Below, one piece after another: positions 33,126 to 50,068 of a stretch of DNA of 64,000 bases; positions within the stretch are counted from its first letter, which is position 1, and each line of letters starts with the position of its first letter. The notes below the pieces were generated by a model. It did no database searches. It was given only the letters and a program-made list of their open reading frames with translations, and was not told the origin of the DNA. The translations under genes and the position numbers were made by a program. Source of the stretch: Candidatus Omnitrophota bacterium. GTDB lineage: Bacteria > Omnitrophota > Omnitrophia > Omnitrophales > Aquincolibacteriaceae. The stretch lies in the NCBI GenBank assembly GCA_043732705.1, contig JAYTHE010000026.1, positions 12,136-76,135 of the forward strand, in the 5' to 3' direction.

Positions 33126-33299
33126 ATGACGCATCCTGAAAAAATAAACACAGATAGTTGGATCGAAATCAAATTGATTGTTGAGCCGGAGGAATATCGA
33201 TTCCTTCAAAAGCAAGCTCAGCGCAAAGACATGATGGTTTCAGACCTAATTCGGCAAATTGTTCTGCGCTACATCGGTAATGAACGGGGGAGTTTATGA
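33126..33299 (+). CDS. Small (57 aa) ribbon-helix-helix-like protein, translationally coupled to the giant gene
   Basis: Absent from the ORF table (below 60 aa). Reads MTHPEKINTDSWIEIKLIVEPEEYRFLQKQAQRKDMMVSDLIRQIVLRYIGNERGSL. The beta-alpha-alpha pattern is CopG/RHH-like. Its TGA overlaps the giant gene's ATG (ATGA at 33296-33299). No strong SD. Confidence 0.4.
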   Translation: MTHPEKINTDSWIEIKLIVEPEEYRFLQKQAQRKDMMVSDLIRQIVLRYIGNERGSL

Positions 33300-36200
33300 G
33301 GTTAAAAAAAACAGTCAAGAAAGTGACCGCGCTTTTTTTGATAGTTACTTTTTCTTGGACAAATTTAATTGGAGCAAATAGCTGGGCGGCAGTCGAGCCG
33401 ATTCAAATGGTTAATGGGCAAGCCACAGCTGTTACCGATCCTTTTGCCACGAATACAAGTACTACTCAGATGGGAACGGTTCCCGTTGATTTTTTAGCGC
33501 AACAACCTGTGGTGACAACCGCTGCCGCAGTCTCCTTGGTTTCAATTGCTCCTACAGCTGCATTAAAATCTACCAACGTATCAAGTTTGTTGGGGAACCC
33601 TAAACCTTATATTCTTTCTAGTTCAACTTCCGCGACAAATCTGAGCTATGTAAACAATGCATTCAATTTTGGTTATAGTGTTCCAAATACTAACGACAAA
33701 TCAGGATTTTCTGTTTCATTTGATAATACAAGTACGGCCTTGATAGAAACGCAAAGCCTAACAAAAATGACCTTGGGTTTGAAGGGCACTGCTTCGACAA
33801 TTCAACTCGAAATCGTGGACTCATCCGGAATGCACGATAAGATTTTACTCACAGGTATTTCAAACACAGTCGAGCAGTTTTGGAAGATTCCAACGGCCTA
33901 CTTTTCTGCTTCAGTGAATAAAGCGAAAATTACTCAAATTAATTTTATTGTTGATCAATCGAATACTACAACCACAGCCCGATCGGGAACTTTGAATGTT
34001 CGGTTGAACGGATTGGATGTCGCTTCGCCAACTGCGCCTCTTGTGCAATCTGCGCCGCCCGCATTTTCAAATGTGAATAATATTACCTTGTCAGGAGCCA
34101 AAGAAGCGAACACATCACTTTTGATTAATGGTGTTGAAGTTATGCCGCGTAATAACTCAACAGCCTGGTCTTATCAGGTGAGCTTGCCCATAGAAGGTAA
34201 ATATATATTCAGTCTGATTGTCAAAAATTCGCTTGGAAAAATCAGTGCGGCATCTACGGTTGCGATAACGCGTGATACTGTTTTACCAACCGGAACAATC
34301 ATAATCGATTCAGGGGCTCTTTATTCCACTGACTTAAATGTGGCGTTGAAGCTTTCGGCGGTAGACGCCGGCAGCGCGGTCAAAAAAATGAGTTTTTCAG
34401 CGGACGGAGTGAATTGGAGTGCTCAAGAAACTTATGTGACTGCAAAAACTCTGACGCTTTCCTCAGGCGACGGTAATAAAACGGTGTATGTGAAATTTTA
34501 TGACGGAGCGGGGAATGCTAGCGCCGTATATTCCAAATCAATCATTGTTGATACTTTACCGCCTTCCGGAACAATTAAAGTGAATGATGGTGTGGCGATG
34601 ATTAATCAACGGGTAGCAATGTTGAATCTTTTAGCTGTAGACGTTGGATCCGGTGTCAGCAAAATGAGTTTTTCAACTAACGGGACTTCTTGGACAACCG
34701 CAGAAGTCTATGGGACAACTAAAGATTGGATATTTTCAGCGGGTGATGGGAATAAAATAGTTTATGTAAAGTTTTTGGATAAGTCGGGTAAATGGTCAAC
34801 GCCGATATCAGCAGCTGTTTTGATGGATACAATCAAACCGACAGGATCAATTAATATTAATTCCGGAGCGGCTTATGTTAATTTGCCTGAGATTGCGCTT
34901 AATCTTTCTGCTGCCGATCTTGGGGGAGCAGGCATCGGCAGCATGAGTTTCTCGTCTGACAATGTGAATTGGACAGTGCCGGAAGCTTACACGACTACCA
35001 AATCCTTTGTGCTTTCTCCCGGCGATGGGAATAAAACAATTTATGTAAAATATTTTGATAAAGCGGGGAATGTGAGTGTCGCTTATTCAAAATCCATTCT
35101 ATTGGATACGATAGCACCAACGGGTACGATGCGTATTAACGGAGGCGAGTCTTTTGTTAGTCAGACAGCCGTAACTCTTAATTTAACCGCAGCTGATTCC
35201 GGTACGGGGCTCGATAAGGTAAGTTTTTCGAATGATGGTGTGAATTGGAGCGTGGCCGAAACATTTGCTGCCGAGAAAAATTGGGTGCTTGCGATTGGCG
35301 AAGATCTTAAAACTGTTTTTGTTAAGTTTCTTGATAAGGCCGGTAATTGGTCAAGTGTAATTTCTAATAGCATTTTTCTGGATGTCACCGCGCCCACGGG
35401 GGCAATCAATATTAACTCCGGCACTGCTTACACAAACTCAAAAAATATCACATTAAATTTATTAGCAAATGATTCTGGCAGTGGTATCGATAAGATGAGT
35501 TTCTCAGTAGATGGAATTAATTGGAGCGCGCTTGAAAATTTTACGGCTTCCAAAGCATGGATGCTTTCTGACAATGATGGGAATAAAACGATTTATGTAA
35601 AATATTTTGATAAAGCGGGGAATGGGAGTGTCGCTTACTCAAAGTCCATTATCCTGGACACTATCGCACCGATTATTGATCTTTTGAATGCGCCGACTCA
35701 TGCAAATAGCGCAAGTTACATGACTCAGTATCGTGTGGATGGCGTATTAAAAGACAAAGCTTTTACGCTTAGCTCCGGAATGAATGCGATTTCAATTCGG
35801 GAAATAGACTTTGCGGGAAATGAAACAATTCGCACATGGAATGTGGAATATTCTACGACGGAAGACATCAATCTTGCCGGCGGTGGGTTGCAACATTTTG
35901 AAAATGGAAAGATTCAGTATCAGGTTAATGCGGACGGGAGCCGGGTTAATTATAATTCGGATGGATCGATTGCGAATTTTTCATGGGGCATAGCGAATGG
36001 AAATACAAAGGTCACATTTTTAAATGACGCACAAAACTCTTTAGAAATACGCGACGCATCCAATCAATTAATCAAGATCATCTCAAATGTAAAACCCCCA
36101 GAGCCTAATTTGAGCAACGCTCTTAAAATTAATTTGCAAGATGGAATCGAGACTTACTATTCAGAAGGTGTCTTGAAGGAAATCCGGACTGCGGAAAATG

Positions 36201-39200
36201 TGAAGCTTTTTAATTTAACGATGTCCGCGCCTGTCTCCGCAAGTGAAGTGCCCGAAATACGGGATGCCGTGATTGCTTATCCTAATGGTTCGATTGACAT
36301 TATGTGGAATAAATTTTTGATCCGCAGAATCACAGTTGATGGATCAATTACAGATATGCTGCCTGACGGAACGATAGGCAGGGAAATTAGCGAGGAAATT
36401 GAGCAAACTTATCTCGGAATTTATGATGCCTCCGGAAATGTTGCAGGGACAAAAATTCTTTCGAATCAAGGCGACGAAGTCACTTACGACGAAAAGGGAA
36501 TTTTAAAAGAAGTCAAAGGGCATGATGGTAAGCATTTTGTTTATGATCGCACACAAAGTGGGAACCAGTATCTTTTAAGCCTAAACGGAGCACTTTCCAG
36601 TTCTGCGTCGGACCAAACGCTTAAATCAGGGAAATATGCGCAAGACGGAAGCGTTCTTGAGCTTGATTTTCAAAATGGCAGCAAAGTAACCTTTGAAAAC
36701 GGACAAATTAAACAGGCTGTAAATGCACAAGGTGAGACGGTTAATTACAGTCAACTGCTAAGCAATGGCCTCGCACAGGGGCTAATGGTGAATCGGGGCT
36801 TAGCCAATTTTACTTATGACATAACCGGTTTTCTCAGCCAGATTCAAACGGAACAAGGAATCATTACCCGCGAACAAGTGGACTCTAATCACGATGGTCT
36901 GCTCAATGACCAAGATACGGTCGATTTGCTGTTGGAGCTGACAGGCGGGAATAAACTCACGGATTTTCAATTGGATGTGAATGGGAAAATTTTAAATGGG
37001 ATTATCGAGACGCGCGAAGGTATAAAGCAGAAAATTGAAAATGGAATTCTTAGAGAGCTAATTACCGCAGATGGCAAAAAATATCTGATACATAACGGAC
37101 AGGCAGAACTTGATACTTGGGCATTTCAGGATGGCATAGTTGTGAAGTATGGCGGTACAAGTATTCAGCAGATTTTGTTTCCAAATGGGAAGCGTTTTGA
37201 GCAAGTGCAGCTTAACGCACAAAAAGAAATTGCAAGCTATGTTGAAATTGATGGTAACACACAAAGTTTTTTTGAAAATGGAATTTTAAAAAAGCGTGTT
37301 TTTGATGGGGTTCAGATTTTTTACTCAATAGATGGACGAGCTCAAAAAATAATCCGTGCGAATGGTGCCGAGGAATTTGTTGAGCATCAATTTGATGTGA
37401 ATGGAAATTGGGTTGGATTAAATCTGGTTAGTGCGGATGGCATGCTTGTTTACGATGAGGATGGAAAGCTTACCGCTATTTTGACATCAGGCTTAACCGC
37501 GCAGGTCGAAGATAGCACGATTAAGAGTCTTTCAACGCGCTTTGGAAATATACAAGATCCCGTTTTTAATGCTAAGGGCAATCTGAACGGAGAGGTTGTT
37601 TTATCAGACGAACGAAAACTTCTCATTCAGGATGGCAAACTTTTACGTATAACTTTTAAAAATGGAACACAGATTGATTGTGCCAATGGTCGCATCTCAC
37701 GCGTTGAAAATTCAGAGGGAATTTATCAGCTTACCTACTTGGAAAACTCTAGTGCCCTTGAGGATGTTAAAGTTAATTATGTCTTAAGCCCCGGTACTTC
37801 TGCCACCGGACTTACGGTTGAAATGAGCCTCGCAAGCTATTTACTAGCTAATCCTTATTCTGAATTTTCAAAAATCATAAGTCCTCGCCCTGCGAAAGAT
37901 ATTTTTGCGGGTGGAATACAAACACAGTTAGGCGCTCATGGTTTACTTGATTTATCAAAGATAGTTGAAGACCAAGATCGCGGAGATACTTACTCCGTAG
38001 GAGGGATTTTTGATCCAAACTTATCAGATATTTATAATTTAGATGGCAACTATAACGGCGGATATCTTAGCAAAAGTCTCATGGGGATGATTGCTTCTGA
38101 TTTACTAGATTTAGATGGAGATGGTGATTTAGACCGGATCTTTGTTGATTCTTCGAAAAATTTTTGGTGGGTTCAAAAATTTGAAAATGGAAGTTTCCTT
38201 TCTGCTGAGAAGTGGATCGGGATAGAGGCGATTGGAAATACAGTCAATAATTTTGCTTTAAGATTCTCTAATGACTCAAACACCGCGGTTATGGGTAACT
38301 TGCTGGATATGAACGGGGATGGCAGGCCTGATCGCGTAGTAGCTTCTGTAAATGAAAATCCCGTTTGGTATGTTCAATTAAATAATGGTGTCGGTTTTGA
38401 TCCGGCTAAAATTTGGAGTAATGTGCAGCCGCTTATCCAAATCAATGCCGGCGATCCTATCAACAAGTACGCGCTACAAGTTCGCGAGAATTCTTCGCAA
38501 AATCAGTTTTTTATCTCTGATTTAATTGACATGGATGGTGACAATTTGCCGGATCGCATTATTCAATCGCAAGCAAGCCCTGTTCCTGGCGCGGATCCAT
38601 TCAATCATTGGTTTTTTCAAAAAAATAACGGACATGGGTTTGATGAAGCTGTCATTTGGAAAGGGATTAACAATTCCTTTGATCTGGATCCTAAGATCGG
38701 CAGCGGCATGAACGTTTTTTTTAATAGTACAACTTGGTTTGATGAAGATCTGCGCCTTGCATTTACAAGCGCCCATGCAAGTTTTAATAACGCTTGGACT
38801 AGCAAAAATATTAATGCTTACCGTGCGACTTTCCTTCTAACTAAGTCAATGGTTAAAGGGCCTCCGGGAATCTTGAATTGGCTTAATAGCCTGGAACCGC
38901 AGCTTTTCGGAACGACATGTGTAAAGAACATATGCACTCAATATATAAAGGAAAACGTATACCAAGCGGCCAACGCACTTTTTTCAAACATTGATTCTGT
39001 CCAAAGAAATATTCTAACCACGAGCGTTCTAAAGGACATGAATGGCGATGGCCGGCCCGATCGAATTTTACTTAAACAGAAGAATCCGAGTAATGCTAAT
39101 TCGGGCTATAGCTGGTACATCCAATGGAATAATGGCAGCGGCTTTGATCCCGCTGTTCTTTTTGATGATCAAGTTCGCAGTGTGTCGGGCAGCATTGCGC

Positions 39201-42200
39201 AGCAGGGAGCATCCACCGCCATTCAATCTTTTTTTGCCTGGGATCAGAAAGAAAAGACACGCAGCTATCTGAGTTATTTAGCGGATGTCACGGGTGACGG
39301 CCTTCCGGACCGCATCACTTTAGATTCTTGGAGCATGGTTCCGGCAAATCGGTGGTGGGTTGAAGTGAATGATGGAAAAACTTTTAAGGATGCTGTTGCT
39401 TGGGATGGTGTGGAAGGTAGTGCTTTAGCCCAAATCGCGCCTTCCCAAGGTATTGAAGGAGCCGCGACGCAGAGTTCGAATGTAAGCGTGATATCAAAAC
39501 TAATTGATATAAATGGCGACAAAATTCCCGACCATATTTTTTTTAAGGAAGGAACAAATCAATGGGTTGTGCAGTATGGAACAGGGCACGGCTTTTTACC
39601 TTCTCAGCCGATGGAAATCCAGGGTATTCGGAACAAAGAAGCATTTAATGCGGCTAAATACGAATATGCGCACATAAGTTTGCGCGCTCAATATCCTGAT
39701 CTTGTTCAAAATGGCAAATTGGTAATTAGGCTTATCGATGAAAATAATAAAGAAGTTCAAAAATGGGAAATTACGGGCGCAAACAATAGCTGGAAAGATC
39801 AATATTTGGCGATTGACCGTGCAAAAACAGGCGGCCGCTATCTGGATGCGCGTTGGGAGCTTAATGCAGGGGTAGTTGCAGCCGATCCGCAAATTTTAGT
39901 CGATGATGTAAGTTTAATTTCGTTGCATCCCAATGCAAGTACGGAATGGCTAGATTATTTGCTTACGGAAGGGAATGTGATTAATGCCGTGCAAGCGGCG
40001 GCGAATGATCCGGCGATTCATGATTTAGCTCAAGTCGTTAATGCGCAAGACACATTTGATTGGAAAAAACTGCTCGCGGTCGAAACCAAAATTAATTTCA
40101 ATGCAACCGGCGCGGTTAGCGGCGCCGAAAAATTAAATGGTGAAACCTCACAAGTTCAAACTTCGGGCAACACAACCACGATTACTGTGGCGCATACCGA
40201 TGGAACTGTTACTCAAACCACAGTTCCCACCGCAGGTAGTTCAAATAGCTACACAAAAAGCATTAACTATGACAATGGAACACCGGATAATTTAACGGAT
40301 GACTACACTGAGATAGCTATGATTGCTTATGATCGTATGCGAAGTGTGACTCGTGACCACAGTCATAAACAACCGCTTCAATATTCTTATGAATTTGATG
40401 AATTAAATCGAGAGATTACAGTTATCTATGATCCTGATTCTAATGAAACTGAAAAATCACGGGCGGTTTCCGGATTAAATGGGGACGAAAATAAAATTGT
40501 CGCGCAAATCGCGGCCAACGGGGTTGAAACTCGCTACACCTACAATGCTTCCGCTGAGCTCACGCGCACCGAAATTACTTATAAGGGGCGCGTACGCGAA
40601 ACTTTTGAGCAAAGTATTACTGCGGACGGCCTTCACGCGCTCAAAACCGAATCGGGCTCAATCGAGTTTTATAATGAGCAAGGACAAATTGTCGGCCATC
40701 GCACAACCGATGGCTATTATTACAAGCATGAATTTGCTCCGGCTAAAACCATAGAGACTTCTATAACCACTAAAACAGTTGTGTTGTGCGATTCCGCAAA
40801 GCAAGATTGTTCAGCAATTCCTGTCGCGCAACGCACGCTTACAGTTCAAATTCCGACAGTTACCTTGACAGACTGTTTAATTAATTGCGAAACCATTCAT
40901 CAGGTTACACTCGATCATCTTACCGACTTAGATGGCAATATTGCTTTTTATACAGGCTCGCAGTTAAGCAGTCTTGAATTATCAACGGGCCTTAAGATGA
41001 CTTTCGACGGAATGATTACCGAAAATAGCAAAGATGTTAATGGTAATGATATTGAAATTACCAAGCCCAAGAACGTGGTCATTTTTCATCAAGATGGAAC
41101 GATCACTGAGTTTAAGAATGGTCTGCCATACTCTGTCACTTCCGCAGCTGGCCACGTTATTTCTATTGAGCCCGACACAGAGACGACGACTACAGGTCGT
41201 GTTGTATTAAAAAATCCTTCCTCCTCCGCCGAGTTTCACTACGCTGAAGCGGTCAAGCTTTGGAATCAGAAAGTTTTGGCTAATTTTGATAAATATCAAT
41301 TGCCGGACAGCCAAGTTGTGCAGGTGGAATATGCAAAGACGGGCAACAAGATCGTTACGCAGCTTTTCGCGTCAGGTGGGCGGGAAATGTATGACGCTGC
41401 CGGGCATATTGACTTTGTGGTTTCCGAAGAAGGGGATCGCATTATTGATTATGACTATGATGCAGCCGGCAATCCTACCGCGATCCATTTAGAAGGCTCG
41501 CGCCGCAAACTTGATCAGACCATATTAGATCTTAAAATTGAAATAGCTTTAAAACAGTATCAGTCTTTACTTGATGTGGCAGAACGCGAGCAGATTTTAA
41601 ATGAAACAGTAGAAAGTCAGTACATTGTTCAACGCAATCAGTTAATCGCGTTACGCGCGCAAATTGAATCGCAGCGAAACCAACTAGCCTCGATTAAAGT
41701 TAAAGGCAAAGCCGGTAAAAATTCAATATCGGACGCGATGCAGCAAATTAATGTTGGTCTCGGGCAGGTGAATCAGGCTTTATACCAATTGCTCGAAAAT
41801 CGTACGCAAGCGCTCGCGAATTTACAAGGCCAGGTGAAAAATCTTAATACGCAGATTAATGACCAAACAACGCAGGCTTACACGGACATTTCAAATAAAG
41901 AAAGAGAAGTTCAAAATTCAATCCTGACGCAGGAAATTTCGCCGATCGTTTATCACTGGTACCGCACAATTCTTGGTCGCGATCCCTCTGAGTCGGAGTA
42001 TGAAGCTGCCAAGTCTTTGGCCAACTATAGCTCGGGGACATTTAACCTTACAAGTCTTAAGGCGCAGCTTCAAAATAGCCCTGAATATGTCCAACGCACA
42101 GCGGAAGTAGCCGCGATTAAAGCCGCAGTTAAGACGCAATTGCTTAATTATTTAGCGGCAGATGACGCCGGCAAGCAAGCCTTTGTCGCAGGTTTAGGAA

Positions 42201-45200
42201 TTAATTCTCAAAATAGAGTGTCTCTTGCTCGGGCTGAAGTGGATGCAATTTTTGTATGGATGGATAAGCAAAACTTGCACTTTGGTCAATCCGCTTTCAT
42301 TTCCTTAGAAGCGCTGCTTGACGATGCGGGCATTGCGCACAACCGCATTAATATGGCGCGGGATTTAATTTTAACTGACATTATTACCGGTACTCTTACT
42401 CCGATTGAAAAAGGTGATTTGCTTATTTCGATGTATGCGATGAATGCCTATGCCGCCCGGTTTGGTTTAAATTTATCGCCACTCAAACTAACTTACGACG
42501 CCCTCAAGTCTATTTTTGATACTTGGTGCGTTGAGCATGGTTCATGCGCGGGATTCCGTTTGGTTGCGCATATGGATGGTAATCATTACGTTGTAGTTAC
42601 AGGCATTACTACGCGGGTTGAAGATGGGAAGACTATCGAAGAAGTTCACTATACTGATCCGGGCGCGGGCAAGAACGGTGACGAAGCGGTTGTCGTATCC
42701 AAAGATGATTTTTTGAAGTATTGGATTAATCAATCCGCAAAGTTAGACAGCCCGGATGCATCTAACTTACAAAACTCAGCTATGGGTTATATCCTCTCGC
42801 CGCGCGCGCCTCCGGCTGCTAAAAAAAGTGAATTCCGTGTTTTAAATTTCACAGAGCAAATGCAGGTTCGCGGCTCCTTCTTCTTTCTCATTCCCATTAT
42901 CGTAGCTGCTATCGTTGTAGCTATTCATGCCATTGTTGGCGCAATTATCGCAGCGATCACGGCGATTATCGGCGCACTCGTAGCAAGTGTTAGCACAATC
43001 ATTACCGGTTTCACCACGTTCTTTGGTGGATTATTCGGAAATTTCTTAACAACATTCTCTGGATTTTTTACCGGAATATTTCACGGTTTGACTTCGCTCG
43101 GCGGACTTGTTTTTAATGCGATTACGTACGGTCCTAATGCGGTTCTTGGAGTGCTTGGCCTGAAAGCCGGAACCTTTCTCGGCAGCGTGGTTTTCTCAAG
43201 CTTGATAGGCGCTGAATTCTTGGGTGCAGGAAAGCTTTTAGAATTGACGGGTTTGTCCCCAAAATTCGCGCAAACGATTATTAACTTTGGAAAAATTATC
43301 ACGGGTGTCAGTCTTATCGCAACGGGCGCTGGAAGTGTTCTTGGATTCGGATTCATCAGCGCGGGAACAACGGATTTGCTCCATGCCTATACAAATCTTT
43401 CACCGCAGTTTATCAATGCTCTTTCCATTGGTGCGCAGGCATTAAGCGCGTTTGGAATTGGTGGAGTTATCGGCGGAACTATCCAAGGCGCAATGAATGC
43501 GCTTAAAGAAGCAACTCCATTTTTGACGAAAGAGCTTTCATCGCTGGGGTTGCTTAGTTTTGGGACGAGCAAAAGCCTCAGGCTCGCTGCCTTGCTTGAA
43601 ACCCCGATCAATTTATTTACGGGCGCACTTTTGGGAGGAGGGTTTTCAGCAGCTAATATTCTGAACTCCGTCAAAACGGCGCTTTTTAGTCAGCAAGCAC
43701 TTGCTAGTTTTATTTCGATCGGGGCGCAAGTGGGACTGAATGCATTACCGATTAACCCTCTTTTGGCCGGCTTAGGCGGGGTAGTTATTTCGGGGCTGAT
43801 TGATGGATTGGTTCCGGTCAAAAAAGTTCCGGGCTTGGAAATTGGCGCGCCTATTTTTGAAACAACTTATCAATTGAAAGGCGTGCTGGAAGGATTAAAA
43901 AATGCCGTTCAACGCGCCTTCAATACTGTTTTGGAGACTCTTAGAACAGAGTCAGTGCGGTTTGACGTATCAGTTGCGAAAAATGGACTTAAAGCAACTC
44001 TCTCCGACATTGTAGCAAGCGCGCTTGACCGCTCTTCAATTGAAGGTTTGATTGGAACTGTCGGTAACCTCTCGGATTATATTGAAGACAAATATAACAA
44101 TCACTCCACGATCGTTAATTATCACGGTTCGCCGGCTAAAGAAGTCACTTTGGATGTAAATGGTAAAACCGTCATTATGACATTCGATCAGGCGACACAT
44201 GAACTTTTGCGCGTTGATGGCAGCAATGGGCATATTTTAGAAGGCGATTTGCGGCTTGGGGCGAATGGAAATATATACGCTTTTAACGGTTCGGAATTAA
44301 CCTCTGGAGCCAATGGCGTCGTGCAACAGTTTACTTATGAAGACGGCAATCTTGTTTTTTCGCGCTATGTCGGTGATGGTAAAGGCGCGGATTGGTACCC
44401 TGAGCAAGGTAAGAAATTAACTCTTTATTCAGACGGACAATTGCGTGACGGCATTATTGAAGACTTGAGTTCGGGCGCAAAGACGGTTGTGCGCAACGGA
44501 AAAATTATTGAAGTTATCAATCCGCTTAAGCTTGAAATCGCACCGAATTCAATCGGCGGCGAGCAAGTTCCACTTTTTGAGCAGGCAGGGCTGCTTGGCG
44601 AAGATGGAAAATTCACAAATTATGAATATCGAATCAATTCCGCGGCGCTAAAAGGAATGCGGTCAGATGATTTAAGCAGCGCGGCGTTGACGGGCTTAAA
44701 AGAATCCATGAATGATCTTTCCAGTTGGCAGGGAACACCGGCAGGATTTGCGAAAACAGGTATTCAAAAAGTTCAAGCATGGGAGGAGAATTTTTATGCG
44801 GTGAACGGCAGTCCTCTGACAAATCGCGGTTCCTTGGGTGTTTTTCTTGCGGCAGGAGCCATTAAAGGCGTGTTCGATATTGGCAATTTTGGAACAGACA
44901 CGTACTTGGCGGTGGAATCATTAAAAGAAGCGATTCGAACCGGGGAATTCGAAACCGGCGCGAAGAATTATTTTGATAATTGGAAAAATTCGCTTCTCAC
45001 TAATCCTTTGATTTCTGTGGCTAACGTATTTGGAGTCAACACCCCCAATTTAAATCAAGCCGTGTCGTCTATGGGCAACGAAACCATGCGCGTCATGAAT
45101 GCCTTTGGCACCGCAGAAATGGTCAAGGTTTTATGGCCGTACAAAGGAATTTTCGCTACGGGGTTAGTATCTGCTCTGAAAGATGATTTTGGACAGCTCA

Positions 45201-45748
45201 TTAGGAGTGAAGGCGGGTATATTCGAATTGTTCGAGAAACTTTTGGGGAAAGAGTATCAAGATTGCTTGGAAATCCTACCAGCGGTAACTTAAATGAGAT
45301 CGAGGGATTATTACGAAATAAAGTCAATATGCAGGAGGTCTTATTTAAAGAATATAAGAGTGCAACAGATGTGACTGAGGCGGCTCAACGCGGCTTTTTA
45401 AATTTGGATGTTAATACAGCACGATCATTTAAAGGCGGACAGTATCAAGTTAGAGTTTTATCGGAAGATCTTGTAGTGTATCGAGCAGAAGGTGGATTGG
45501 CCAAAAAATATGGCGCATTTTTTGGCACTGAAAAACCTATTAATGCTTACGATGCGGATCGGCTCTATAATGTCGTTGTGCATGGCAATGATGTGCAAGA
45601 GGTTTCTACGTATATAATTAAAAAAGGCACAGTGGTCTACGAAGGTGGGGTAGAAGGTGGGGTAGGTGTTCAAATGTTTTTGAGAAATCCAAAAGAAAAA
45701 GATGTGGCTCTTTTAGCTACAGAAATCTTAGAAAGAAGTACTACATGA
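33296..45748 (+). CDS. Giant (4150 aa) secreted multidomain protein: Ig-like tandem repeats, YD/RHS-like repeats, FG-GAP-like Ca-binding repeats, coiled coil, DUF4214-like motif, C39-like peptidase motif, 330-aa glycine-zipper hydrophobic region, variable C-terminal domain (polymorphic-toxin/teneurin/Tc-toxin-like architecture)
   Basis: Single uninterrupted 12.4 kb ORF. Signal peptide MRLKKTVKKVTALFLIVTFSWTNLIGANSWA. Five ~93-aa repeats (DT-PTG-I-IN-G...GDGNKT-YVKF-DKAGN). YD-like segments (VYDEDGKLTAI, ETRYTYNASAELTRTEITYKG). Six FG-GAP-like repeats of the form L-D-[MLI]-[ND]-G-D-G-x-P-D-R (written xDxNGDGxPDR elsewhere). Heptad-rich region at aa ~2740-2880. VYHWYRTILGRDPSESEYEAA (DUF4214-like). 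CAGFRL ... NHYVVVTG (Cys...His). aa ~3192-3521 is hydrophobic and G/A/I-rich. Confidence 0.85.
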   Translation: MRLKKTVKKVTALFLIVTFSWTNLIGANSWAAVEPIQMVNGQATAVTDPFATNTSTTQMGTVPVDFLAQQPVVTTAAAVSLVSIAPTAALKSTNVSSLLGNPKPYILSSSTSATNLSYVNNAFNFGYSVPNTNDKSGFSVSFDNTSTALIETQSLTKMTLGLKGTASTIQLEIVDSSGMHDKILLTGISNTVEQFWKIPTAYFSASVNKAKITQINFIVDQSNTTTTARSGTLNVRLNGLDVASPTAPLVQSAPPAFSNVNNITLSGAKEANTSLLINGVEVMPRNNSTAWSYQVSLPIEGKYIFSLIVKNSLGKISAASTVAITRDTVLPTGTIIIDSGALYSTDLNVALKLSAVDAGSAVKKMSFSADGVNWSAQETYVTAKTLTLSSGDGNKTVYVKFYDGAGNASAVYSKSIIVDTLPPSGTIKVNDGVAMINQRVAMLNLLAVDVGSGVSKMSFSTNGTSWTTAEVYGTTKDWIFSAGDGNKIVYVKFLDKSGKWSTPISAAVLMDTIKPTGSININSGAAYVNLPEIALNLSAADLGGAGIGSMSFSSDNVNWTVPEAYTTTKSFVLSPGDGNKTIYVKYFDKAGNVSVAYSKSILLDTIAPTGTMRINGGESFVSQTAVTLNLTAADSGTGLDKVSFSNDGVNWSVAETFAAEKNWVLAIGEDLKTVFVKFLDKAGNWSSVISNSIFLDVTAPTGAININSGTAYTNSKNITLNLLANDSGSGIDKMSFSVDGINWSALENFTASKAWMLSDNDGNKTIYVKYFDKAGNGSVAYSKSIILDTIAPIIDLLNAPTHANSASYMTQYRVDGVLKDKAFTLSSGMNAISIREIDFAGNETIRTWNVEYSTTEDINLAGGGLQHFENGKIQYQVNADGSRVNYNSDGSIANFSWGIANGNTKVTFLNDAQNSLEIRDASNQLIKIISNVKPPEPNLSNALKINLQDGIETYYSEGVLKEIRTAENVKLFNLTMSAPVSASEVPEIRDAVIAYPNGSIDIMWNKFLIRRITVDGSITDMLPDGTIGREISEEIEQTYLGIYDASGNVAGTKILSNQGDEVTYDEKGILKEVKGHDGKHFVYDRTQSGNQYLLSLNGALSSSASDQTLKSGKYAQDGSVLELDFQNGSKVTFENGQIKQAVNAQGETVNYSQLLSNGLAQGLMVNRGLANFTYDITGFLSQIQTEQGIITREQVDSNHDGLLNDQDTVDLLLELTGGNKLTDFQLDVNGKILNGIIETREGIKQKIENGILRELITADGKKYLIHNGQAELDTWAFQDGIVVKYGGTSIQQILFPNGKRFEQVQLNAQKEIASYVEIDGNTQSFFENGILKKRVFDGVQIFYSIDGRAQKIIRANGAEEFVEHQFDVNGNWVGLNLVSADGMLVYDEDGKLTAILTSGLTAQVEDSTIKSLSTRFGNIQDPVFNAKGNLNGEVVLSDERKLLIQDGKLLRITFKNGTQIDCANGRISRVENSEGIYQLTYLENSSALEDVKVNYVLSPGTSATGLTVEMSLASYLLANPYSEFSKIISPRPAKDIFAGGIQTQLGAHGLLDLSKIVEDQDRGDTYSVGGIFDPNLSDIYNLDGNYNGGYLSKSLMGMIASDLLDLDGDGDLDRIFVDSSKNFWWVQKFENGSFLSAEKWIGIEAIGNTVNNFALRFSNDSNTAVMGNLLDMNGDGRPDRVVASVNENPVWYVQLNNGVGFDPAKIWSNVQPLIQINAGDPINKYALQVRENSSQNQFFISDLIDMDGDNLPDRIIQSQASPVPGADPFNHWFFQKNNGHGFDEAVIWKGINNSFDLDPKIGSGMNVFFNSTTWFDEDLRLAFTSAHASFNNAWTSKNINAYRATFLLTKSMVKGPPGILNWLNSLEPQLFGTTCVKNICTQYIKENVYQAANALFSNIDSVQRNILTTSVLKDMNGDGRPDRILLKQKNPSNANSGYSWYIQWNNGSGFDPAVLFDDQVRSVSGSIAQQGASTAIQSFFAWDQKEKTRSYLSYLADVTGDGLPDRITLDSWSMVPANRWWVEVNDGKTFKDAVAWDGVEGSALAQIAPSQGIEGAATQSSNVSVISKLIDINGDKIPDHIFFKEGTNQWVVQYGTGHGFLPSQPMEIQGIRNKEAFNAAKYEYAHISLRAQYPDLVQNGKLVIRLIDENNKEVQKWEITGANNSWKDQYLAIDRAKTGGRYLDARWELNAGVVAADPQILVDDVSLISLHPNASTEWLDYLLTEGNVINAVQAAANDPAIHDLAQVVNAQDTFDWKKLLAVETKINFNATGAVSGAEKLNGETSQVQTSGNTTTITVAHTDGTVTQTTVPTAGSSNSYTKSINYDNGTPDNLTDDYTEIAMIAYDRMRSVTRDHSHKQPLQYSYEFDELNREITVIYDPDSNETEKSRAVSGLNGDENKIVAQIAANGVETRYTYNASAELTRTEITYKGRVRETFEQSITADGLHALKTESGSIEFYNEQGQIVGHRTTDGYYYKHEFAPAKTIETSITTKTVVLCDSAKQDCSAIPVAQRTLTVQIPTVTLTDCLINCETIHQVTLDHLTDLDGNIAFYTGSQLSSLELSTGLKMTFDGMITENSKDVNGNDIEITKPKNVVIFHQDGTITEFKNGLPYSVTSAAGHVISIEPDTETTTTGRVVLKNPSSSAEFHYAEAVKLWNQKVLANFDKYQLPDSQVVQVEYAKTGNKIVTQLFASGGREMYDAAGHIDFVVSEEGDRIIDYDYDAAGNPTAIHLEGSRRKLDQTILDLKIEIALKQYQSLLDVAEREQILNETVESQYIVQRNQLIALRAQIESQRNQLASIKVKGKAGKNSISDAMQQINVGLGQVNQALYQLLENRTQALANLQGQVKNLNTQINDQTTQAYTDISNKEREVQNSILTQEISPIVYHWYRTILGRDPSESEYEAAKSLANYSSGTFNLTSLKAQLQNSPEYVQRTAEVAAIKAAVKTQLLNYLAADDAGKQAFVAGLGINSQNRVSLARAEVDAIFVWMDKQNLHFGQSAFISLEALLDDAGIAHNRINMARDLILTDIITGTLTPIEKGDLLISMYAMNAYAARFGLNLSPLKLTYDALKSIFDTWCVEHGSCAGFRLVAHMDGNHYVVVTGITTRVEDGKTIEEVHYTDPGAGKNGDEAVVVSKDDFLKYWINQSAKLDSPDASNLQNSAMGYILSPRAPPAAKKSEFRVLNFTEQMQVRGSFFFLIPIIVAAIVVAIHAIVGAIIAAITAIIGALVASVSTIITGFTTFFGGLFGNFLTTFSGFFTGIFHGLTSLGGLVFNAITYGPNAVLGVLGLKAGTFLGSVVFSSLIGAEFLGAGKLLELTGLSPKFAQTIINFGKIITGVSLIATGAGSVLGFGFISAGTTDLLHAYTNLSPQFINALSIGAQALSAFGIGGVIGGTIQGAMNALKEATPFLTKELSSLGLLSFGTSKSLRLAALLETPINLFTGALLGGGFSAANILNSVKTALFSQQALASFISIGAQVGLNALPINPLLAGLGGVVISGLIDGLVPVKKVPGLEIGAPIFETTYQLKGVLEGLKNAVQRAFNTVLETLRTESVRFDVSVAKNGLKATLSDIVASALDRSSIEGLIGTVGNLSDYIEDKYNNHSTIVNYHGSPAKEVTLDVNGKTVIMTFDQATHELLRVDGSNGHILEGDLRLGANGNIYAFNGSELTSGANGVVQQFTYEDGNLVFSRYVGDGKGADWYPEQGKKLTLYSDGQLRDGIIEDLSSGAKTVVRNGKIIEVINPLKLEIAPNSIGGEQVPLFEQAGLLGEDGKFTNYEYRINSAALKGMRSDDLSSAALTGLKESMNDLSSWQGTPAGFAKTGIQKVQAWEENFYAVNGSPLTNRGSLGVFLAAGAIKGVFDIGNFGTDTYLAVESLKEAIRTGEFETGAKNYFDNWKNSLLTNPLISVANVFGVNTPNLNQAVSSMGNETMRVMNAFGTAEMVKVLWPYKGIFATGLVSALKDDFGQLIRSEGGYIRIVRETFGERVSRLLGNPTSGNLNEIEGLLRNKVNMQEVLFKEYKSATDVTEAAQRGFLNLDVNTARSFKGGQYQVRVLSEDLVVYRAEGGLAKKYGAFFGTEKPINAYDADRLYNVVVHGNDVQEVSTYIIKKGTVVYEGGVEGGVGVQMFLRNPKEKDVALLATEILERSTT
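34270..35680 (+). repeat. Five tandem ~279-bp coding repeats (Ig-like modules) inside the giant gene; repeats 3 and 5 are near-identical at the DNA level over ~100 bp
   Basis: GATGGGAATAAAAC(A/G)ATTTATGTAAAATATTTTGATAAAGCGGGGAATG ... CGCTTA(T/C)TCAAA at about 35028 and about 35578. The protein-level periodicity is listed in the call. Confidence 0.8.
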
Positions 45749-46107
45749 TTAAATCTTTATCCGAAACTCGCAAATCAATTGTAGAAATAGTTGGGTTTTT
45801 GAAAGTGCACAATGATTTAGTTTGGACTAAATATTTGAGTGGAATGCTTTCGGAGTTTGACAGGGTTTTTGGTGGAGCCGAAGTAGATCAGCAGGGTGGA
45901 AAAAGTATTTTAGAAAAAATCGACAAGCTATTCGGTGGCATGGGCTCATTGAATGATTTGAATATTTACAAAGAGAATGGTCATATTGTAAGTAATGAAA
46001 GAGAAGCCAATGTGGAATTAAGCAAATTACGATCAAGATTATTTGATAATGTTCAGAGAAGTATTTTGGAGATGCAGCAACAACAGGAGAGATCGGAACA
46101 TTTCTAA
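45745..46107 (+). CDS. Small (120 aa) cytoplasmic protein translationally coupled to the giant gene's stop; candidate immunity/partner protein
   Basis: Its ATG at 45745 overlaps the giant gene's TGA at 45746-45748 (ATGA). No signal peptide. Acidic, helical. Motif SILEKIDKLFGGMGSLNDL. The assignment rests on position only. Confidence 0.5.
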   Translation: MIKSLSETRKSIVEIVGFLKVHNDLVWTKYLSGMLSEFDRVFGGAEVDQQGGKSILEKIDKLFGGMGSLNDLNIYKENGHIVSNEREANVELSKLRSRLFDNVQRSILEMQQQQERSEHF

Positions 46108-46153
46108 AAGTGCCAGGTCTAAAAGGACAAAAAGTTGAAAAAGATATTAAGTT

Positions 46154-46741
46154 ATGCCAAGAAGACCAAGAGTATTAGTAGATGGTGGAATCTATCATGT
46201 TTTTAATCGTGGAAATAACCGACACGATTTATTTTGTGATCAAGAGGATGCAGGAATTTTCCTTTCGTATTTATATGAAATCAAGCAAGAGCTTGGGGCG
46301 AGCATCTATCACTATTGTTTGATGACCAACCACTTTCATTTTTTGATGAAGGTTGAGAGGGGCGAGGACTTGTCGAAAGTGATGCATAGAGCACAATTGG
46401 GATATGCGCGTTACTTTAAGCGAAAATATAAATTTGTTGGGCATGTGTTTCAGGAACGGTTTCGAAGCCCATTAATTGATAGAGAGGCTTACTACCTCCA
46501 GTGTGGGAGGTATATCGAGCGCAATCCTGTCAAAGCGGACATGGTGAAGAATGCCTGGGACTACGAATGGACGAGTGCTACGTATTATGCGCTAGGTGAA
46601 AAGGATGGAATGATAACTCCAAACCCATATTATGAGGGAATGGGCAAGGATGCAGCGAGTCGGCAGGAGAGTTATCGTAGCTTTTTAGCGATCGAAGATG
46701 CTTATTCAAAGTTAATTGATGAGGCTTTAATTAAATGTTAG
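46154..46741 (+). mobile_element. IS200/IS605-family Y1 (HuH) transposase of the REP-associated tyrosine transposase (RAYT, COG1943) type
   Basis: IYHVFNRGNNRHDLFCDQED ... YHYCLMTNHFHFLM (HuH motif HFH) ... catalytic Tyr in YIERNPVKADMV. Matches the RAYT signature YI..NPVKA. Confidence 0.8.
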
Positions 46742-47040
46742 TAATCGAACCCGGCACTTTTAGAAATGTTCCGATCTCTGTTCTAAGATATGCCAGTGAA
46801 CAAAATGGAGCTGGTAGTTTTTTAACCAAAAGTAATTATTCAGATGTCGCTCAAGCTGTTAGTGGATTAAACTTGGAGCCAACTAATAATTTAGCAAGTT
46901 ATAAACAAGTGGTTATGGTGGAAAAACCCACGCTGGTTTTAGAAGGTAAAATTGCCGGAAGTGGTGATGGTTCTGTGCAATCAATAGTCCTCGAGAAAGA
47001 TAGCTTTGTTTTTCAGGCAGGAGAAAGTATTAATGATTAA
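46735..47040 (+). CDS. Hypothetical small protein (101 aa), coupled to the transposase stop
   Basis: ATG 46735 overlaps the RAYT stop by 7 nt. AT-rich DNA. No motif recognised. Confidence 0.4.
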   Translation: MLVIEPGTFRNVPISVLRYASEQNGAGSFLTKSNYSDVAQAVSGLNLEPTNNLASYKQVVMVEKPTLVLEGKIAGSGDGSVQSIVLEKDSFVFQAGESIND

Positions 47041-47311
47041 TAAAGTTTTAATTCAACTAGAAGCTTTAATTCGTCAGTTAGAAACGCCCTTACAAGAAGA
47101 AGAAAAACAGCAAGGGTGGACTGAAGAGAAAAGAAAGATATGGTTGAATTATTTTATTTCGGTGAAGCTTGAAATTAAACTTAAAGGAATTGAATATTAT
47201 AAGAAAAATTCCAAATCAATCATTAGGTCCTTAGATTCTCATAACATCCATGGCGGCAATATTCTCGAAAGCGCTTGTCGCCTTGAAAATTTGGTTCATG
47301 ATTTAAAATGA
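47033..47311 (+). CDS. Hypothetical small helical protein (92 aa; alternative start 47006)
   Basis: ATGATTAA overlap with the previous stop. Predicted helical. No motif recognised. Confidence 0.4.
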   Translation: MINKVLIQLEALIRQLETPLQEEEKQQGWTEEKRKIWLNYFISVKLEIKLKGIEYYKKNSKSIIRSLDSHNIHGGNILESACRLENLVHDLK

Positions 47312-47469
47312 AACTCTGGCACATCGGTTTAATCATTCTTCTTGTGTCGCTGCTTATCAGCGTATTGCTTGTCCATGCTGAAATCGGCGGCCTTATTCGC
47401 GATCTTTTTCGCATCCTTACGCTTGCTGGACTCGTGCTTCTTATTTATGGACTTATTAAGCATAAATGA
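47308..47469 (+). CDS. Putative 53-aa two-TM membrane peptide
   Basis: Absent from the ORF table (below 60 aa). ATGA overlap with the previous stop. Reads MKLWHIGLIILLVSLLISVLLVHAEIGGLIRDLFRILTLAGLVLLIYGLIKHK. Confidence 0.35.
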   Translation: MKLWHIGLIILLVSLLISVLLVHAEIGGLIRDLFRILTLAGLVLLIYGLIKHK

Positions 47470-47558
47470 CTGGGGCAAAGATTGAATTTTTTCAAAGGTA
47501 GTGAGTCTAAGAAAATAGATTCGTAGTTATGATTCTTAAAAATAAACAGGAGAAAAAT

Positions 47559-47960
47559 ATGAAAACCTTAGCATCCGTATTTGCAGTTATGATTTTATTA
47601 AGTGGATGTAACGCGGCCAGCCATCGTGCGGCGGTTCAGGATGACTCCACGGATCGTTTGACTGTGGGAAATGTGCAAAGAGAAATTCATGTTGGCATGA
47701 GCGGTGCTGATGTGGTTCAGGCACTAGGTTCACCCAATGTTGTAACTACGGATGAGCAGCGCCGCGAAGTTTGGGTTTATGATAAAGTTGCTTCCGATGC
47801 CACATATTCAAACAGTTCAGGCTATGGCACGCTAATTCTTTTAGGCTATAGTAAAGATGCTGGATCGGTTTCGACTACTCAAAGAACTTTAACTGTTGTT
47901 GTGAAGTTTGATGAGAAAAAAATGGTCCGAGACTTTGCTTATCACAGCTCGAAATTTTAA
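47559..47960 (+). CDS. Lipoprotein, BamE/SmpA_OmlA-like
   Basis: RBS AGGAG. MKTLASVFAVMILLSGC lipobox. Motif LTVGNVQREIHVGMSGADVVQALGSPN ... EVWVYD. Confidence 0.55.
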   Translation: MKTLASVFAVMILLSGCNAASHRAAVQDDSTDRLTVGNVQREIHVGMSGADVVQALGSPNVVTTDEQRREVWVYDKVASDATYSNSSGYGTLILLGYSKDAGSVSTTQRTLTVVVKFDEKKMVRDFAYHSSKF

Positions 47961-47991
47961 AAATAGAACTGATTTGTGCGGATTTAAAAAT

Positions 47992-48534
47992 ATGAAACGC
48001 ATTGCAGCTTTTGTCTCAGCCTGTTTAATATTGACCGGCTGTATGTCTATGCCGCTGGATATTTTAAAATCTCCAGCGGATGCGGTTCAAAAGCGTGAGC
48101 TCCAGAGTCGGGCTTATGCCACGACCGATGAAAATAAAATGATCACATCGGCCGCTATGGCGCTCCAGGATATGGAGTTTACCTTAGACGATAGTGAAAC
48201 TTCACTTGGCGTGGTATTAGCATCAAAGGATCGAAGTGCTGTGAGCGCCGGTCAAGTTACTGCGGCAGTGATGCTTGATGTGCTTGCGGCGGCAGGGGGC
48301 GGATATTCAAATGCTTATGGAACAACTGACAAGCAACAAAAGATACGCGCTTCAGTTGTGACAAAACTGAGTGAAGATAGATCAAAGGTTATTGTCCGCA
48401 CTGTTTTTCAAAAACTGGTTTGGAATCAAATGGGGCAGCTTTCTCGAGTTGAAACGTTGAAAGACGCGACGATGTATCAAGGGTTTTATGATAAATTGTC
48501 TAAATCGGTATTTCTTGAGGAACAAAAAATATGA
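47992..48534 (+). CDS. Lipoprotein, uncharacterised family (paralog A)
   Basis: MKRIAAFVSACLILTGC lipobox. Shares motifs with the next gene (R-Y/F-T-D ... QD-E ... FY..LSKSVFL..QK). Confidence 0.55.
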   Translation: MKRIAAFVSACLILTGCMSMPLDILKSPADAVQKRELQSRAYATTDENKMITSAAMALQDMEFTLDDSETSLGVVLASKDRSAVSAGQVTAAVMLDVLAAAGGGYSNAYGTTDKQQKIRASVVTKLSEDRSKVIVRTVFQKLVWNQMGQLSRVETLKDATMYQGFYDKLSKSVFLEEQKI

Positions 48535-48962
48535 AGTCAGATTTTTGTAAAAGAATATTTATCGCGGGAGTGATGCTTTTTTTTGTAGGGTGCACGAGCT
48601 CTCCATCGAAGAGTGTTCTTGCGACCGATGCGAGTCAAGTGATGTTGCGTAGTATGCAGACACGTGCCTTTGATACAAGTGATCAGTCAAAAACAATGCG
48701 TGCGGTGATTGCCACTGTTCAAGATCTTGAGATGGTGATCGAAAAAGCGGATCAGCAGTTGGGGAGTGTGACTGCAACAAAATTTAGCAGCGGACAAGAG
48801 CTTAAAATGACTGTTACGGTGAGAAACGGAAATCCTGGACAAACTCTGGTGCGTGCTAATGCGCAATATGGAATTAAGCCTGTTGATAAGCCAGAGCCCT
48901 ACCAGGACTTTTTTTCTGCACTTGAAAAATCGATGTTTTTAGCCGCGCAAAAAGTCGATTAA
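48531..48962 (+). CDS. Lipoprotein, uncharacterised family (paralog B)
   Basis: MKSDFCKRIFIAGVMLFFVGC lipobox. ATGA overlap with paralog A. Motifs RAFDTSDQ ... QDLEMV ... FFSALEKSMFLAAQK. Confidence 0.55.
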   Translation: MKSDFCKRIFIAGVMLFFVGCTSSPSKSVLATDASQVMLRSMQTRAFDTSDQSKTMRAVIATVQDLEMVIEKADQQLGSVTATKFSSGQELKMTVTVRNGNPGQTLVRANAQYGIKPVDKPEPYQDFFSALEKSMFLAAQKVD

Positions 48963-49072
48963 GTTTTCTTTTCATTTCCGCAAAATAAGATTTTCCCTCC
49001 TATTCCGTCATGCCTGCTTTGCAACTTGAAGGTGCAGACAGCTGTGTTTCGAATGAGCTACAATAGCGGCTT

Positions 49073-50068
49073 GTGATGTCCTTTTATATGCGAATTCAAA
49101 AAACGACTTTAATCCGGCAGGCTTTTTTTATTGGTGTTTTATTTTTAATTTCTGCACAAGGTTTTGCCGCGGAAAAGGGTGAGCAAATGAAAAATAGTCC
49201 TATCAAAATAAAAATCGGCGAATCTTTTCTTTTACAAAAGGATCAAGCAGCGAAGTATAAGGGAATTTTATTTAACTTTTCAGCCGTCACACATCCATTC
49301 TCCAAAAATCCGGATACAGGCATTGAGCAATATCCGAAAGAGGATTATGAGCTCACCGTTTCATACCGGGGAACAAAGCTGAATACCTATAAAATAGGTG
49401 ACGGCACTTTTTTACGTTTAGCTGACCCTAGTGATCAGGTTATAGGGAAAATCGAAGGTATTTCTTATGCGTTTCGCAGACTTGAACACAAGTTGGGAGA
49501 GGTGCGATTGATATTAAATAAAACCGAATATGAAGTTGCTCCCATTGCAAAGCAAGATGCTGCAAAACAATCTCTTATCTATTCGATTAAATTGCGTTAT
49601 GACATTGAAAAAGACGTTGCCAGGAAAGTTATCTATCTTGATGAAACTTTTCACAATAGCGGACAAACTCCATTAACTCTAAGTCTGTGGGGGCAGTCTC
49701 CCATGGTTAAAGCAGTTAAGCCTTGGTGGGCATTTCGTAAAGAAAAAACCCGCGCAGCTTGTGGAATGCCAGGTGCCGCCAAAGAATCAGATGTGCTGCA
49801 AATTCCTCCTAATCAGTCAATCACAGTGTCTCAATGGTATTGGGCGCAGTCCCTGCTGCCATGGACTTCAGAGCCGGACAAAGGTTTTAATACGCTTTTT
49901 CACCTTAAGAAATCAAGCTCGATTCAAATAGCACTTTGCCGGGTTTTTCGTAATGACGTTGAGGTAGTCGGGCATTTATTAAAGTGTAAAGTACAACTTG
50001 TGGAAGGAAAGTTCTGTTCAGCGCCGGTGAAGTTCAAGTACGAAATTCTTGAAAAAGAAGAAAAGTAA
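49073..50068 (+). CDS. Hypothetical secreted protein
   Basis: Signal peptide (FFIGVLFLISAQGFAA). No recognisable catalytic motif. Confidence 0.45.
   Translation: MMSFYMRIQKTTLIRQAFFIGVLFLISAQGFAAEKGEQMKNSPIKIKIGESFLLQKDQAAKYKGILFNFSAVTHPFSKNPDTGIEQYPKEDYELTVSYRGTKLNTYKIGDGTFLRLADPSDQVIGKIEGISYAFRRLEHKLGEVRLILNKTEYEVAPIAKQDAAKQSLIYSIKLRYDIEKDVARKVIYLDETFHNSGQTPLTLSLWGQSPMVKAVKPWWAFRKEKTRAACGMPGAAKESDVLQIPPNQSITVSQWYWAQSLLPWTSEPDKGFNTLFHLKKSSSIQIALCRVFRNDVEVVGHLLKCKVQLVEGKFCSAPVKFKYEILEKEEK

Follow-up and report, generated by a model that had tools for sequence, protein, structure and literature searches.

A DUF6966-family protein encoded directly behind a giant polymorphic-toxin-like gene of a Candidatus Omnitrophota bacterium: a probable immunity protein for a predicted NADase-like C-terminal domain

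The DNA analysed here (the window) is a stretch of 64,000 nucleotides (nt) from contig JAYTHE010000026.1 (positions 12,136 to 76,135 of the forward strand; assembly GCA_043732705.1) of a Candidatus Omnitrophota bacterium. It contains an open reading frame (ORF) for a giant protein of 4150 amino acids (aa) and, directly behind it, a small ORF for a protein of 120 aa, which an earlier note on the window had put forward as a candidate immunity protein of a polymorphic toxin system; the positions of both genes and of the features discussed below are collected in Table 1. As that note had pointed out, the start codon of the small ORF is embedded in the stop codon of the giant one, and the junction can be read directly from the sequence: the giant ORF ends ...ACT ACA TGA and the small ORF begins ATG ATT AAA, the two being joined in an ATGA overlap. 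The small ORF is a real gene and not a chance frame, since its product matches the Pfam family DUF6966 (PF22294) above the cut-off (38.3 bits, the gathering score being 27; E = 1.4e-9, residues 45-82) and a hidden Markov model (HMM) of the family, built without the window sequence, matches it at E = 1.8e-28. The same leave-one-out model gave no other match in the six-frame translation of the window. The protein can therefore be assigned to a named family, which had not seemed feasible when it was first described.

The AlphaFold2 model of the small protein (58-sequence alignment; mean predicted local distance difference test score, pLDDT, 96.3) consists of four helices (residues 3-21, 25-42, 49-63 and 85-118), in agreement with its earlier description as a helical protein. 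A signal peptide had been considered absent, and indeed the longest hydrophobic run is six residues and the N-terminus carries no hydrophobic segment. Its supposed acidic character is slight (isoelectric point 5.9; 18 acidic versus 16 basic residues). The LFGGMGSLNDL segment (residues 62-72, nt 45928-45960), which had merely looked conserved, proved to be part of a genuine family signature: among 58 homologues, residues G64, G65, M66, G67 and S68 reach a conservation of at least 90%, and D71 never varies (numbering of the small protein). The signature as a whole reads W...FGGMGS-ND...NG(H)...N..L..LR and occurs in stand-alone proteins of about 100 aa; the window protein holds every conserved position. 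The conserved residues cluster in the loop between helices 3 and 4 (residues 62-84) and at the start of helix 4, and residues 62-80 of this loop are modelled as ordered (pLDDT blocks of 95-98).

A full HMMER scan of 1.84 billion representatives yielded 74 relatives at E ≤ 1e-3, nearly all of them stand-alone proteins of 90-120 aa, and the longer members displayed no informative domain fusions. The Pfam model of DUF6966 comprises only 53 positions; in the present alignment, the family forms a four-helix domain of about 100 aa. Pfam records no function for it, and no mention of it was found in the literature. Its profile gave only chance-level matches to the PDB (E ≥ 0.2, designed or unrelated helical proteins), a word-indexed protein search with the small ORF returned only the query itself, and a comparison with plasmid sequences produced no match. 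The GGMG motif was likewise not found in the supplements of the NAD glycohydrolase (NADase) literature on Tni4 (RhsI1-1036) and Tni5.

Table 1. Positions and strands of the giant gene, the small gene and associated features in the window (last row: positions in the loci named)
Feature	Position	Strand	Basis or remark
Giant ORF, 4150 aa, toxin carrier	33296..45748	+	ORF translation and Pfam segments
Low-GC tract	45150..46350	.	33-40% versus about 45% in the rest of the giant gene; spans CT, small ORF and start of next gene
CT domain, giant aa 4021-4150	45356..45745	+	NAD(P)+ glycohydrolase-like predicted fold; no Pfam model
Y4062-R4063, invariant Tyr-Arg	45479..45484	+	Candidate NAD-binding or catalytic Arg, first core strand; alignments A2 and A3
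Q4126, Gln of GGxxQ motif	45671..45673	+	Candidate catalytic residue; invariant in A2, at least 90% in A3
ATGA start/stop overlap	45745..45748	+	Small-ORF ATG (45745-45747) shares TG with giant-ORF TGA (45746-45748)
DUF6966-family protein, 120 aa	45745..46107	+	Predicted to act in the cytoplasm as immunity protein to the CT domain
Conserved loop joining helices 3 and 4 (aa 62-80), LFGGMGSLNDLNIYKENGH	45928..45984	+	Conservation and ordered model; proposed toxin-binding element
Partners scoring with the DUF6966 HMM (Sphingomonas, Bacillus)	L156 2457-2735; L157 2383-2685		

The giant protein is multimodular. Its Sec-type signal peptide is followed by Ig-like repeats, a TcdB_toxin_midN region with an FG-GAP propeller, weak YD/RHS repeats and a coiled coil; then come a weak C39-like peptidase match (residues ~3045-3106), about five Gly/Ala/Ile-rich hydrophobic segments (residues 3189-3500), an unassigned stretch of about 500 aa and, finally, the C-terminal toxin domain (CT). 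When the protein was scanned in segments, the Pfam matches above the cut-offs were Big_7 (34.1 bits), FG-GAP_3 (53.9 bits), TcdB_toxin_midN (27.5 bits) and FG-GAP (27.0 bits); those to RHS_repeat and Peptidase_C39 fall below. About 1400 aa, comprising the coiled coil, the C39-like region and the hydrophobic segments, lie between the last YD-like repeat and the CT. The Pfam scans revealed no RHS core (PF03527) and the DPxGL motif (DP.G[LWIVM]) occurs nowhere in the protein, so that it should not be filed as an Rhs protein; judged by its domain order, it is an unusually built scaffold of polymorphic-toxin-like character. If the exported N-terminus were followed by an odd number of membrane segments, the toxin domain would come to lie in the cytoplasm of the producer.

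The CT of the window belongs to a sequence family of its own. An HMM of 59 CT domains, from which the window copy had been left out, matches residues 4025-4119 of the giant protein at 42 bits (E = 2.9e-9 in a million-sequence space). The last 200 aa of the giant protein gave no match in the word-indexed protein search, and no close homologue of the CT was found. Pfam offers no match to the window CT even at E ≤ 10, PF14021 (TNT) included, nor any family at E ≤ 0.01 for the CT regions of ten family members; NCBIfam and PADLOC match neither the CT nor the small ORF, and the CT profile has no sequence match in the PDB at E ≤ 10. At the level of structure, a Foldseek search of the PDB with an AlphaFold2 model of the last 130 aa placed NAD(P)+ glycohydrolases at all ranks from 1 to 17, the remainder being noise. 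The top match is Tne2 (6b12_A, E = 3.3e-4, TM score 0.57), and others include Tse6 (4zv0_A), the Serratia Rhs1-CT (6xtd_A) and the TNT-type fungal NADases (6yge/8pmr); the first transferase, Plx2a, appears at E = 5.4. The model, although its pLDDT is only 73, shows the palm fold, similar to that of ADP-ribosyltransferases (ART), which is common to Tse6, Tne2, Rhs1-CT, TNT and AfNADase. The CT family is thus a further sequence family of NADase fold for which Pfam has no model, and on the strength of the model we lean towards regarding the CT as an NAD(P)+ glycohydrolase.

Examination of the putative active-site residues of the CT shows that the window copy keeps Y4062, R4063 and Q4126. By likeness to ART/TNT-fold enzymes, the invariant Tyr-Arg pair may serve in NAD binding or catalysis, and the Gln of the GGxxQ motif is a candidate catalytic residue. 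The active site of TNT is of the Arg...Gln type.

The genomic association of the two families was assessed in 80 DUF6966 loci from many phyla, obtained by a pattern scan of one genome per species; ORFs were called around each gene and linkage to a CT was counted by a six-frame HMM scan. In 25 of the 80 loci a CT is encoded directly upstream of DUF6966 and on the same strand. One of these (L028, from a Leptonemataceae metagenome-assembled genome) is weak. L028 is also the closest DUF6966 relative, but amounts to no more than a 57-aa remnant that lacks similarity to the giant protein. The linked loci are distributed among the Pseudomonadota, Acidobacteriota, Gemmatimonadota, Planctomycetota, Myxococcota, Bacteroidota and Desulfobacterota. 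Many of the upstream ORFs end within a few bases of the DUF6966 start, and the 4-nt overlap seen in the window recurs in L001, L019, L020, L030, L042, L051 and L060. The upstream carriers (268 to 1726 aa) are unrelated in their N-terminal parts and have in common with the window giant a C-terminal domain of about 115 aa (blastp; alignments A2 and A3). Several carry RHS_repeat, RHS core and TcdB_toxin_midN modules and are genuine toxins of the Rhs/Tc type. A profile search added more than 226 further proteins with a CT domain, some of which are named "filamentous hemagglutinin" or "RHS repeat-associated core" in their sources; two of them possess a PT-HINT domain according to Pfam, and carriers on plasmids are annotated as "pre-toxin TG domain-containing protein", "WXG100 family type VII secretion target" or "RHS repeat-associated core".

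The two families also diverge together. Pairwise identities among the CTs correlate with those among their DUF6966 partners (Mantel Spearman 0.61, permutation p = 2e-4, for 21 non-redundant pairs including that of the window). At the sequence level, this correlation shows co-inheritance or co-evolution as a module, two causes which the Mantel test cannot separate. The earlier note had suggested looking for co-variation of the small ORF with the C-terminus of the giant protein, and such co-variation is evident both in the shared adjacency and in the correlated identities.

Taken together, the recurrent adjacency and the co-divergence lend support to the original suggestion, and we consider it likely that the small ORF is the cognate immunity gene for the CT of the giant protein, which its product would neutralise. 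The ATGA overlap would couple the translation of the two genes and so yield immunity protein and toxin in stoichiometric amounts, and the immunity protein would bind the CT in the producing cell as well as in siblings into which the toxin is delivered. Hydrolysis of NAD(P)+ would then be blocked, most plausibly by entry of the conserved loop FGGMGSLND...NGH (residues 62-80) into the active-site cleft, with H80 as the candidate basic plug residue. The loop is proposed as a plug because known NADase immunity proteins insert loops with a basic residue: in three solved complexes, the active site is entered by a structured loop of the respective immunity protein (Tsi6, Tni2 or RhsI1, which are unrelated), the loop bearing Lys62, Arg153 or His131 (PMC10539506), and a model of Tne5-Tni5 predicts occlusion of the cleft by a loop (PMC13285283). 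Being drawn by analogy, this plug mechanism is a tentative proposal. The near-invariance of the loop fits a binder of a conserved catalytic cleft; it fits ligand binding equally well.

The base composition of the locus is in accord with exchange of the pair. The G+C content (GC) is 0.35 in the small ORF, 0.43 in the giant ORF and 0.44 in the window, and the drop in GC that marks the low-GC tract of Table 1 coincides with the CT and the small ORF, as expected for the signature of an exchanged CT-immunity cassette. We propose that the pair behaves as a mobile cassette which has been grafted onto different delivery scaffolds. A gene for a Y1 transposase (IS200-like/RAYT-type; 46154-46741; PF01797, E = 7e-13) begins 46 nt past the small ORF, and the low-GC tract enters its 5' end. 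Farther downstream, GC is 33-37% over 46650-47400. The ORFs past the transposase (46735-47311 and 47529-50068) include two of about 101 aa and a third, of 143 aa, whose BamE-like match is below threshold, and the same stretch contains ORFs of 208, 143 and 331 aa without a Pfam match; the ORFs of these two intervals gave no match to the CT or DUF6966 HMMs.

The observations assembled in this and the following two paragraphs weigh against the immunity reading. The CT model is of only medium confidence, with a TM score of about 0.57 for its best match. Foldseek with the DUF6966 model met only generic helical bundles (best E 0.39, a de novo design), Tsi6, Tni2 and RhsI1 being absent among the 50 matches listed. 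Very strong conservation of a single loop is unusual for immunity proteins. The window CT, in turn, is the most divergent member of its family (25-33% identity); the near-invariant Q66, D71 and W76 of the middle helix (CT alignment numbering) are missing from it, as is the first Q of the xxQ...GGxQ region, and because near-invariant residues are absent, its activity is uncertain. The module might be a decayed or inactivated relic, in which the CT of the window is inactive and the DUF6966 protein persists as orphan immunity against related toxins of competitors; the want of a close homologue of this CT and the transposase gene just downstream point the same way. We nevertheless regard a relic as improbable: the 12.4-kb reading frame is intact, as is the ATGA coupling, the Tyr-Arg pair and the Gln of GGxxQ are retained, the DUF6966 copy of the window has lost none of the residues conserved in the family, and the residues missing from the CT fall in a peripheral helical segment, the part that varies among NADase toxins (PMC10539506).

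The second group of observations concerns the distribution of DUF6966. In 55 of the 80 loci (among them L005, L008, L009, L011, L014, L016, L026, L027, L031, L033, L034, L050, L056, L075 and L077-L079), especially in Actinomycetota, Planctomycetota and Acidobacteriota, the gene is solitary and has housekeeping genes as neighbours, e.g., those for an Na+/H+ exchanger, a carboxyltransferase, HemD-GNAT or a ROK kinase. The earlier note had stated that conservation independent of toxin-like genes would speak against its proposal; such independence is seen in these 55 homologues and not in the 25 that are linked to a CT. The DUF6966 family is hence not obligatorily toxin-linked, which lowers our confidence in the immunity reading, although that reading stands. 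The principal alternative is that DUF6966 has a toxin-independent cellular function, e.g., as a small regulatory or nucleotide-binding helical protein, and that its place behind the giant gene is incidental or secondary. In addition to the solitary copies, this view can draw on the Gly-rich GGMGS-ND motif, which is near-invariant in solitary and CT-linked copies alike and in its GGMGS portion resembles a loop that binds a ligand more than it does the typical interface of an immunity protein, which evolves fast. However, the 55 solitary loci have no recurrent neighbour; the sole neighbour to recur in the family is the NADase-fold CT, which in every such case lies directly upstream in the same orientation and often shows the 4-nt overlap. 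The CT and DUF6966 also co-diverge, and the protein of about 100 aa has no enzyme-like fold match. Orphan immunity genes, moreover, are common for NADase toxins, and a functional one against an Rhs NADase has been demonstrated (PMC10539506). Because the solitary copies have the same motif and no alternative conserved context, and because orphan immunity is documented, we read them as orphan immunity genes, an interpretation that fits by analogy with the published cases, and a toxin-independent role appears very improbable.

The third group of observations concerns the partners of the CT family. Metagenome contigs were scanned with an alignment of a conserved CT subgroup (A4), and DUF6966 was found downstream in 8 of the 67 CT loci with room downstream, a proportion that describes the A4 subgroup only. 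The remaining metagenome loci contain at least four other small-protein families, with 16, 16, 8 and 7 members. Partners other than DUF6966 stand behind the CT among the loci L084-L155 (metagenome contigs), L081, L083 and L157, and the same partners recur behind it in a CdiA orphan array of Yersinia mollaretii and a YD-shell fragment of Treponema. CTs that are 60-69% identical can differ in partner (e.g., L098 versus L038, at 67%), although in 41 of 51 cases a CT shares its partner with its nearest CT neighbour. From these sequences, one CT family appears to use several unrelated candidate immunity families, in line with the unrelated immunity proteins of Tse6, Tne2, Rhs1-CT and TNT (PMC10539506).

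Tandem arrays of orphan CT plus small-gene modules occur in L004, L025, L051 and L139, and in the mixed arrays DUF6966 alternates with other partners. The partner families F1, F2, F3 and F5 were considered as distant relatives of DUF6966 and rejected (hhalign probability below 3%, HMM scores at shuffle level). The DUF6966 HMM gives 19.7 bits for the partner of an Rhs toxin from a Sphingomonas plasmid (motif AGGRGFSEYNIWI) and 11.6 bits for that of a Bacillus PT-TG toxin (family F5). The Pfam model may not span the whole DUF6966 superfamily, to which some partners may be remotely linked.

Least probable of all is that the small protein, instead of inhibiting the CT, serves it as secretion chaperone, adaptor or stabiliser, or that the CT is not an NADase but an ADP-ribosyltransferase with a macromolecular target. 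The folds of ART and NADase enzymes are indeed related, the fold call depends on the pLDDT-73 model, and, owing to the hydrophobic segments ahead of the CT, the C-terminus could stay in the producer cytoplasm and might need a holding factor there. However, DUF6966 follows the CT across different delivery domains, whereas the chaperones and adaptors known so far (Eag/DUF1795, DUF4123, DUF2169) go with the delivery domain, their genes usually lying upstream, and the top fold matches of the CT are all NAD(P)+ glycohydrolases, with no transferase ahead of Plx2a.

The reading of the small protein as an immunity protein can be extended into a broader proposition, which we offer as speculation and think rather unlikely in its entirety. 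DUF6966 would inhibit TNT/Tne-type NADase toxins throughout the bacteria by plugging their conserved catalytic cleft, which would account for the near-invariance of its loop, and it would mostly persist as a solitary, pre-emptive ("orphan") resistance gene in lineages without the toxin, many Actinomycetota, Planctomycetota and Acidobacteriota among them. At least five unrelated small proteins, swappable between CTs that are 60-70% identical, would neutralise the CT family, and immunity would be directed at the active site and partly cross-protective as opposed to strictly cognate.

With the immunity reading, DUF6966, a family of many phyla without a literature, gains a testable function, and in annotation the pair can be labelled a toxin-immunity module instead of hypothetical proteins. 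The carriers of the CT family comprise Rhs, PT-TG, WXG100 and haemagglutinin-named proteins, to which the unusual 4150-aa Sec-exported scaffold of the window is added. The combination of one CT family having at least five unrelated partner families with a mostly solitary DUF6966 bears on the specificity of immunity to NAD-depleting toxins, and the same patterns bear on how far orphan immunity genes shape bacterial competition.

Among known systems, the NADase pairs of the T6SS (type VI secretion system), i.e., Tne1/Tse6-Tsi6, Tne2-Tni2 and Tne3/Rhs1-CT(Db10)-RhsI1 (PDB 4ZV0, 6B12 and 6XTD; PMC10539506), have a C-terminal toxin domain of the same fold as that predicted for the CT. Like the window pair, for which this is a prediction, they have a small cytoplasmic protein encoded directly downstream. 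The immunity proteins of these T6SS families are mutually unrelated, and orphan immunity genes occur (PMC10539506). In contrast to the T6SS pairs, the CT and DUF6966 profiles (A2 and A1) have no detectable similarity to any PDB chain, and the fold of DUF6966 is unmatched by those of Tsi6, Tni2 and RhsI1-Db10. The carriers differ as well, a giant protein with a Sec signal in the present case and PAAR-Rhs proteins in that of the T6SS effectors.

TNT, the C-terminal domain of M. tuberculosis CpnT (PF14021), which is paired with IFT, and Tne4 (the Rhs1-CT of S. marcescens SJC1036), which is paired with RhsI1-1036, are NAD+ glycohydrolase toxin domains, as the CT is predicted to be. RhsI1-1036 is a small downstream immunity protein of 124 aa, comparable in size and position to the 120-aa product of the window ORF. 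PF14021 does not match the window CT, and the DUF6966 profile found no significant chain in the PDB, so that IFT is unmatched if it is in the PDB; for TNT, 4QLP is cited in PMC10539506. Tne5-Tni5, from an Rhs protein of Pluralibacter gergoviae, likewise combines a C-terminal NAD(P)+ glycohydrolase of ART fold with a downstream immunity protein, a loop of which is predicted in the cleft, and toxins of the Tne5 type are spread over T6SS, contact-dependent inhibition (CDI) and type VII secretion system (T7SS) carriers (PMC13285283). The proposed pocket residues of Tne5, Lys1392 and Glu1482, are 90 residues apart, whereas the invariant Tyr-Arg and Gln of the CT family are 63-75 apart, a difference that refers to residue spacing.

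With the Rhs and Tc-toxin BC-type proteins, the giant protein has in common TcdB_toxin_midN, an FG-GAP propeller and YD-like repeats, and its CT is one that bona fide Rhs proteins also carry; unlike them, it possesses neither the RHS core (PF03527) nor DPxGL. Although not a sequence member of any of the families tested, a comparison outside which Tni4 and Tni5 remained, the CT and its DUF6966 partner would appear to work in the manner of Tne-Tni, Tse6-Tsi6 and TNT-IFT.

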